From Rickettsia typhi (GTDB taxonomy: Bacteria; Pseudomonadota; Alphaproteobacteria; Rickettsiales; UBA1997): a DNA stretch of 64,000 bases. The translations under genes and the position numbers were made by a program. Positions 47,348 to 47,516 of the stretch are shown in pieces (positions within the stretch are counted from its first letter, which is position 1; the number at the start of each line of letters is the position of its first letter). The stretch is from positions 28,333 through 92,332 of the forward strand of contig CAMBFC010000002.1 in the NCBI GenBank assembly GCA_945865905.1, given 5' to 3'. The notes under the pieces were generated by a model, which saw only the letters and a list, made by a program, of their open reading frames with translations, did not search any database and was not told the DNA's origin.

Positions 47348-47516
47348 TTATAAACGCCAATGCGAGACAGAAAGTATATTCTCGGCTAGTAAGCTCTGAA
47401 CCGAGTTCTGCACCTCATCGCGAGCTACGCTCGCTTTAAATCAGATGAGTGCGGTGTCTGAGGGGCAGAGCTTGCTAGCCGAGAATATACTTTCTGTCTC
47501 GCATTGGCGTTTATAA
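47348..47516. repeat. foldback element B: 51-bp inverted arms (50 Watson-Crick pairs + 1 T/G) plus a 67-nt interior with a conserved core
   Basis: 47348-47398 is the reverse complement of 47466-47516 except at T47390/G47474 (checked base by base). Interior stems GCGAGC-TAC-GCTCGC (47420-47434) and CACCTCATC/GATGAGTG. Core blocks CTCTGAACCGAGTTCTG (47394-47410) and TGTCTGAGGGGCAGAG (47455-47470). Confidence 0.85.

Follow-up and report, generated by a model that had tools for sequence, protein, structure and literature searches.

Between the converging genes rimM and ybgC, the window (the whole 64,000-nt stretch of DNA that we analyzed) carries a 169-bp foldback, element B, which is one copy of a previously undescribed, non-coding hairpin-repeat family of about 120-190 bp. 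As far as seen, the family is confined to uncultured freshwater alphaproteobacteria, in a clade that NCBI labels Rickettsiales. It is an ordinary class of genomic parasite with an unusual build and conservation pattern. Element B itself is probably a selfish, non-autonomous foldback repeat of the MITE, REP or RPE kind that would be mobilized in trans by an enzyme, and the existence of close relatives without it indicates that it is dispensable.

Element B and its insertion site

The two arms of element B (51 nt each, 67 nt apart) pair at 50 of 51 positions (98% complementarity), the sole exception being T47390 opposite G47474. An inverted-repeat search and direct reading of the sequence thus reproduced the arm length, the pairing and the exception described in the original prediction. 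The predicted nested interior was also recovered, with GCGAGC-TAC-GCTCGC (47420-47434) enclosed by CACCTCATC (47411-47419) and GATGAGTG (47444-47451). Elements B and A (see below) are the only long inverted repeats in the window. The features of element B and its neighbors are:

46764..47336, + strand: rimM, the upstream gene (TIGR02273, 2.9e-32); the element starts 11 nt past its stop
47348..47398, unstranded: left arm of element B, 51 nt; inverted repeat, homologous to the arms of the paralogous copies L023 and L033
47394..47470, + strand: conserved 77-nt core CTCTG...CAGAG, whose sense strand is the one reading CTCTGAACCGAGTT; identical in L023 and L033
47394..47407, + strand: invariant block CTCTGAACCGAGTT on the 5' side, forming the first strand of a purine-rich internal loop; columns invariant in 12 copies of three subfamilies
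47408..47454, + strand: variable inner hairpin, P2 (CTGCAC-C-TCATC with GATGA-GTGCGG), which encloses P3 and a 9-nt bulge
47420-47434, + strand: P3 (GCGAGC-TAC-GCTCGC), inside the P2 of element B
47455..47470, + strand: invariant block TGTCTGAGGGGCAGAG on the 3' side, forming the second strand of the loop; its CC/GG pair covaries between C-G and U-A
47466..47516, unstranded: right arm; ybgC takes its last Leu codon and its TAA stop from the outer end
47511..47927, - strand: ybgC, a thioesterase gene converging on rimM; product of 138 aa (146 aa in L015, an empty site)

The sequence of element B was identical in four independent metagenome assemblies, which rules out an assembly artifact; two more contigs stop inside the arm. 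Both the inverted repeat and its fold are far past chance expectation. As RNA, the plus strand folds at -122.5 kcal/mol (z -17.6) and the minus strand at -110.3 kcal/mol (z -17.2), and none of 200 shuffled sequences was as stable as the native one under RNA parameters. As DNA, the values were -74 kcal/mol (z -17.5) and -69.5 kcal/mol (z -16.5), respectively. Comparing the fold energies of both strands, a check suggested in the original prediction, therefore revealed a somewhat more stable plus-strand RNA.

Comparison with loci L015 and L016 (RimM 81% identical) dates the element relative to its neighbors. In both, the genes run carB(N-half)-nusB-rimM-> <-ybgC-queD without the element, and just 9 nt separate the stop codons of rimM and ybgC. 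Element B is, thus, a later insertion of about 165 bp that followed the split from the L015 lineage. The insertion replaced the last four codons of ybgC: YbgC ends in ...ILLSRAV* in L015 and in ...ILL* in the window, where the TAA comes from the outer end of the right arm. Given the minus-strand ybgC open reading frame (47511-47927), the stop codon (47511-47513) falls in the right arm, just as predicted. The inner ~45 nt of the left arm are the element's own, and the outer TTATAA could belong to either the element or the target. TTATAA is its own reverse complement and is present at both ends of the element, so that a target duplication of 2-6 bp (TA or TTATAA) is compatible with the sequence. 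The outer 15 nt of element B resemble the native ybgC tail of L015 and the arm of L033 about equally.

The original prediction also took the element to mark a break in synteny after rimM. Because L015 and L016 share the gene order without carrying the element, the order is older than element B and the element marks no such break; nor does its discovery bear on the evolution of the rimM operon, as had been proposed. Relatives at 60-75% (RimM identity down to 60%) retain the carB-nusB-rimM order. The gene after rimM varies in the clade: ybgC, a flavin reductase gene preceded by two type C elements (L017) or nrdA (L040). The 3' side of rimM is, therefore, a variable boundary in the clade, yet the rimM-ybgC junction predates element B. 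In locus L019 (RimM 94% identical), the 59 nt past rimM (L019:3554-3612) match neither the element nor ybgC and look like the 3' end of another converging gene, so that the downstream neighbor of rimM differs even among close relatives. Two further observations concern the genes upstream. The longest rimM open reading frame has a TTG start at 46764, its first 17 nt (46764-46780) lie within the end of nusB, and public calls start three codons later (187 aa). The 550-aa carB reading frame (44514-46166, minus strand) is the N-terminal half of the carbamoyl-phosphate synthase large subunit (model positions 1-542 of 1058); a half-size carB lies beside nusB in all relatives examined, which indicates a stable split rather than a pseudogene.

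A repeat family with a conserved core and plastic arms

Elements A and B have nothing in common in their arms or central hairpins. As predicted, they share two core blocks, CTCTGAAYCGAGTTYTG and TGTCTGAGRGGCAGAG, at the inner arm ends; each is found exactly twice in the window, once per element. When matched against the GTDB contigs of 185,579 species representatives, the block pattern returned 10 matches, all in two freshwater MAGs labeled 'Rickettsiales bacterium' (Jr-7aug17-213 and Baikal-deep-G64). A slightly wider pattern added 16 matches in JGI metagenome contigs. The lineage is present in the samples behind ERZ27280278/ERZ27280309, JGI 3300005581 and the GROS21 series. In all, we tabulated ~30 copies from freshwater 'Rickettsiales' MAGs and metagenome contigs; the window contributes A and B only, and fuzzy pattern searches retrieved no additional copies from it or from the loci with empty sites. 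The core pattern matched none of the viral contigs in IMG/VR and none of the plasmids in PLSDB, and a phage or plasmid origin was rejected on these searches. Searches of A and B against Rfam 15 returned nothing at the gathering score and, at E<=10, only chance matches of the snoRNA or miRNA type; thus, none of its curated RNA families, including self-cleaving ribozymes, 6S and Y RNA, gave a covariance-model match.

Several contigs end in the element or at its edge: L003, L004 (24 nt past the ybgC stop), L039 (6 nt past rimM), L012, L013 and L033. Such breaks are the expected behavior of a repeat. Because short-read assemblies break in the elements, the family fragments the MAGs of this lineage, in which its copies are probably under-counted.

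The family is built around an asymmetric core of 75-86 nt (CTCTGARYCGAGTT ... TGTCTGAGRRGCAGAG) that surrounds a covarying hairpin. Every copy follows the same plan: an arm of 22-56 nt, CTCTG, an internal loop, the hairpin P2, CAGAG and the second arm. The strands of the internal loop (ARYCGAGUU and UGUCUGAGRRG) are invariant, and some subfamilies add P3 and a bulge within P2. The P2 and P3 sequences are fully different among the three subfamilies, yet the architecture is the same and one common fold accommodates them all:

Type A P2: ATGGTCTA/TAGACCAT; copies in window A, L010, L026 and L030
Type B P2: CTGCGCCATC-type, GCAAGC hairpin; copies in window B, L023, L033 and the Jr MAG
Type C P2: GATGACCC/GGGTCATC; copies in L017 and L020-L031

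Covariation extends to the other paired regions. One pair of the internal loop covaries from C-G to U-A, and the adjacent purine-purine pair changes from A.G to G.A in type C. The P1/arm helix has double changes in 11 of its 17 pairs, with 97% of the cells paired and no shuffle out of 500 at the observed score. The arms differ between subfamilies and diverge fast, yet they are complementary within each copy. By eye, the core had no convincing fit to hammerhead, K-turn, sarcin-ricin or loop E motifs.

The B-type copies separate the histories of core and arms. Copies L023 (prfA/birA locus, between a small open reading frame and birA) and L033 (adjoining murA) lie at unrelated loci; the metagenome that contains both also carries 97-98% relatives of the window genes. 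Their cores are identical to that of element B at 77 of 77 positions, and the arms are 72-79% identical. Had the core diverged as fast as the arms, or half as fast, the probability of identical cores would be 2e-10 to 3e-5. Identical cores flanked by arms that have diverged by 21-28% are very unlikely under neutrality, which implies either selection on the core at every site or homogenization between copies; this leaves room for a host function. The homology of the L023 and L033 arms to those of element B also means that arms and core co-occur at unrelated loci. We considered a mobile core that invades pre-existing palindromes and rejected it, because no arms lacking a core were present in the ~350 kb examined. 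In the Jr MAG, however, one core subtype is paired with two different arm families.

All copies with flanking open reading frames that we examined are intergenic and lie between converging genes (A, B, L008 and L011), between tandem genes or upstream of a gene. Inverted doublets are frequent, in (-,+) order and 70-290 nt apart. They include L012:4338-4608, L014:2697-3027, L017:10691-11127 (L017/L021), L029:1177-1680 (L029/L032) and L031:10655-10994; in the L012 doublet, differing arm families flank identical cores. Type C copies and, more weakly, those of the Jr MAG carry one to three tandem units of ~35-40 nt lying 3' of the sense core. The unit holds CAAGATCTAGAG, with the palindrome AGATCT, and is absent from A and B of the window; it was located at L017:11105-11190, L022:140-200, L029:1309-1370, L031:10995-11050 and L027:8310-8370. 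In L027, complementary tandem units are stacked on the opposite side too, and this second motif forms mosaics with the hairpin element.

Probable arm repair and flank capture in element A

Element A lies between a glycosyltransferase gene (plus strand) and queA (minus strand), and both empty and filled orthologous sites are available for comparison. Its features are:

17223..17377, + strand: element A, the sister copy (inverted repeat 17208-17392), with a type A core (17258-17342) and perfect 35-nt arms plus CTCTG/CAGAG
17361..17377, - strand: native 17-mer ATTCAAAATGAGAGATT, the outer part of the right arm; 16/17 in the empty site L036
17223..17239, unstranded: inverted duplicate of the native 17-mer, forming the outer left arm; missing from empty sites

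In the empty sites, L036 (QueA 89%) and L034 (85%), queA and the glycosyltransferase gene are 23-25 nt apart. Relative to them, the window has gained the element proper (GGGTGG...CCACCC) and, on its far side, AATCTCTCATTTTGAAT. The native 17-mer comprises part of a queA Asp codon followed by Ser, Lys, the stop codon and 6 nt, and AATCTCTCATTTTGAAT is its reverse complement. Hence, the outer third of the arms of element A is an inverted duplication of the flank.

The filled site of a 97% relative (L037/L038) records what has happened to the arms since. Between the window and L037, the near arm differs at 1 of 35 positions, the core at 4 of 85 and the far arm at 9 of 35, an excess in the far arm over the remaining positions (5/142; Fisher p = 1.7e-4). 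The arms pair at 25 of 35 positions in L037 and at all 35 in the window. The simplest reading of these sequences is that arm-to-arm conversion in the window lineage recently copied one arm of element A onto the other. In L037, the invariant block carries a CGAG to CAAG change, which, together with the decayed arms, indicates that copies are able to decay in place.

The sequence comparison at element A points to arm complementarity restored at the DNA level and shows that arms can grow outward by inverted duplication of the flank. The even split of stem mismatches between the two strands across the family (13 against 12) also fits DNA-level upkeep of the arms. Template switching at quasipalindromes, a process of Escherichia coli, yeast and humans, makes imperfect inverted repeats perfect and generates short inverted copies (PMC7202029; bioRxiv 10.1101/2021.11.26.470150). 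Both the arm conversion and the 17-nt inverted flank copy match what such intramolecular template switching at a hairpin (quasipalindrome correction) is expected to produce. Template switching is, however, a mutational process and not a family of elements; it explains the upkeep and growth of the arms and not the spread to new loci. Local copying of the flank holds only for the outer 17 nt of element A. As a source of all arms it is ruled out for the inner ~45 nt of element B by the paralogous arms of L023 and L033.

Origin of the family and relation to known repeats

Copying to new sites would involve an enzyme acting in trans that recognizes the conserved core, presumably in a folded, single-stranded form, much as HUH/Y1 transposases recognize the hairpins of REP or IS200/IS605 elements. 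The invariance of the center and the freedom of the ends suggest that the mover reads the folded core and not terminal repeats. This proposal also builds on the lack of a clear direct target duplication in either empty-site comparison and on termini that are not the conserved part of the element. HUH/Y1 transposases recognize the hairpins of REP or IS200/IS605 elements. As a by-product of the insertion, the rimM and ybgC transcripts are predicted to end in or cross a hairpin of -110 to -120 kcal/mol, which would serve as a 3' stabilizer, a roadblock or an RNase III substrate.

A rival reading, hinted at in the original prediction, is that the element serves chiefly as a structured RNA with a function of its own, on the plus (core-sense) strand in the rimM 3' untranslated region. 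Such an RNA could act as a 3'-end stabilizer, a processing site or a protein-binding RNA, with the stem as a clamp, the internal loop as the active or recognized part and spread as a secondary matter. We regard this as unlikely, though the extreme conservation of the core keeps it in play. The core is invariant while the arms drift, and the loop covariation (C-G with U-A, A.G with G.A) is typical of structured nucleic acids. Further, 23 of 27 copies have a sense core that folds more stably than the antisense, and the mean difference is 3.8 kcal/mol, although the copies are not independent, and the plus strand of element B folds better as well. The energy gap can, however, stem from the G+U-rich 3' block alone. 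In contexts with a single neighbor, the sense strand tends to be co-directional with the gene (~9 of 12, or ~9 vs 3, tallied on predicted open reading frames and not significant), which would be expected equally under a replication-strand bias. The lone wobble in element B had been read as a hint that the plus-strand RNA is the selected form. Yet, across the 839 stem positions of 28 copies, 13 mismatches would read as G:U on the core-sense strand and 12 on the other strand (p = 1), a symmetry that leaves the single wobble without signal and reveals no strand-specific wobble tolerance. Also against an RNA function, close relatives lack any element at either the A or the B site, and the original prediction had named ordinary sequence without an inverted duplication in relatives as grounds for refuting it. 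The element is missing from 81-89% relatives with the flanking genes intact, and the L037 ortholog carries a mutation in an invariant block as well as decayed arms. Copies are found upstream of, downstream of and between genes and as inverted doublets, and there is no Rfam match of substance even at E<=10.

A classical DDE-derived MITE, with the arms as terminal inverted repeats, a short direct duplication (for example, TA) and mobilization by an IS630/Tc1-like or other insertion sequence, appears improbable to us. The family does share with classical MITEs a small size, the lack of coding sequence, multiple copies and presence/absence polymorphism; in addition, a TA duplication would be consistent with the TTA|TAA that bounds element B, and the 22-nt arms of type C are conserved between copies. 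However, termini that are unrelated between subfamilies around a conserved center are the reverse of a transposase-bound terminal inverted repeat. The filled and empty sites of element A reveal an inverted duplication where a direct one would be expected, and no parent insertion sequence with such ends was seen in any locus examined. An origin in place, as a bidirectional intrinsic terminator or a palindrome that evolved between converging genes, would account for the position of A, B and several other copies and for the stability of the hairpin on both strands, but we give it hardly any credence. The same core at ~30 unrelated loci, some of them upstream of genes, contradicts it, and both B and A are insertions relative to near relatives. 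Furthermore, scanning 46700-48000 revealed no terminator-like site or adjacent T-tract. Intrinsic terminators have a short G+C-rich hairpin followed by a T-tract, as opposed to the 51-bp stem and 67-nt interior of element B.

Among described repeats, RPE families are conserved along their entire length and not in the core alone. They are short palindromic repeats that can extend into coding sequence and change the ends of proteins (PMC10969869). RPE-1 to RPE-10 and the family described here are both short (about 100-150 bp), palindromic and non-autonomous, and both reside in Rickettsiales-type genomes. The core signature was, however, in no Rickettsia representative and in only the two freshwater MAGs (pattern search of 185,579 species, one genome each). 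Moreover, RPEs are often inserted in frame in reading frames and encode a peptide, whereas the coding overlap of the copies examined here is limited to the stop and one to three codons of ybgC or queA. REP, REPIN and BIME repeats (RAYT, HUH-Y1) resemble the family in that both are intergenic hairpins with no clear target-site duplication, form frequent inverted doublets and mosaics with short motifs, and are likely recognized as folded single strands. Yet REPIN arms (REP units of 20-40 nt) are conserved and bound by the enzyme around a variable loop, whereas here conservation lies in the center and variation in the arms. By eye, the family had no evident GTAG-type 5' tetranucleotide, nor was there a RAYT gene among the housekeeping genes of the 64-kb window.

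Correia, ERIC and other bacterial MITEs match the family in size and copy number and also form a long RNA hairpin upon co-transcription; RNase III cleaves Correia hairpins, and ERIC elements change the stability of mRNA (PMC10969869). They have, however, conserved terminal inverted repeats and direct duplications (TA in Correia), whereas the termini of the family vary and the duplication at element A is inverted. Nor do the ends of element B (TTATAAAC...GTTTATAA) fit the R''/R' boxes (RYYYAAC...GTTRRRY) of integron attC sites, and copies are single or in inverted doublets as opposed to cassette arrays. With non-conserved termini, no direct duplication at A, no in-frame insertion in reading frames and no presence in Rickettsia representatives, the family lacks testable defining features of REP/REPIN, Correia/ERIC and RPE repeats.

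The new family adds a bacterial hairpin repeat to a lineage known solely from metagenomes, where it is useful for annotation (contig breaks and odd gene ends in MAGs) and as a strain marker. It also provides a natural example of two palindrome dynamics that are usually demonstrated with reporter constructs, correction to perfect pairing and outward capture of inverted flank. If confirmed, the reading of a core by the mobilizing enzyme would add a variant to the few known ways of mobilizing non-autonomous elements in bacteria. A bolder and doubtful proposal is that the core is a new folded module, serving either as the recognition or catalytic center of an undescribed mobilization system that acts on hairpins or as a domesticated RNA of mRNA 3' ends; the arms would then act as a free-running clamp, rebuilt from one strand and taking up flank in inverted form. 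The purine-rich internal loop, the A.G/G.A swap, the covarying C-G/U-A pair and the invariant GUU and UGUCU strands would be the features of such a module. Were it true, it would define a class of foldback elements set by their core and plastic in their arms, distinct from the MITEs and REPINs that are set by their termini.

No transposase or other mobilizing gene was found among the window genes, of which 20 open reading frames were scanned with Pfam (housekeeping or no match) and the rest were covered by precomputed Pfam hits. Window reading frames 197-616, 1132-1422, 19221-19523 and 19561-20310 had no Pfam match at E<=1e-5; at the position of the last one, relatives encode a protein with a weak N_methyl (pilin-like) match. 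The interval 616-2126 is unusually poor in open reading frames for a compact genome. Finally, an A+T-rich overlapping palindrome that is unrelated to the family takes up the whole of a short spacer between two minus-strand genes (28616-28667), with 30-nt arms that are 80% complementary.
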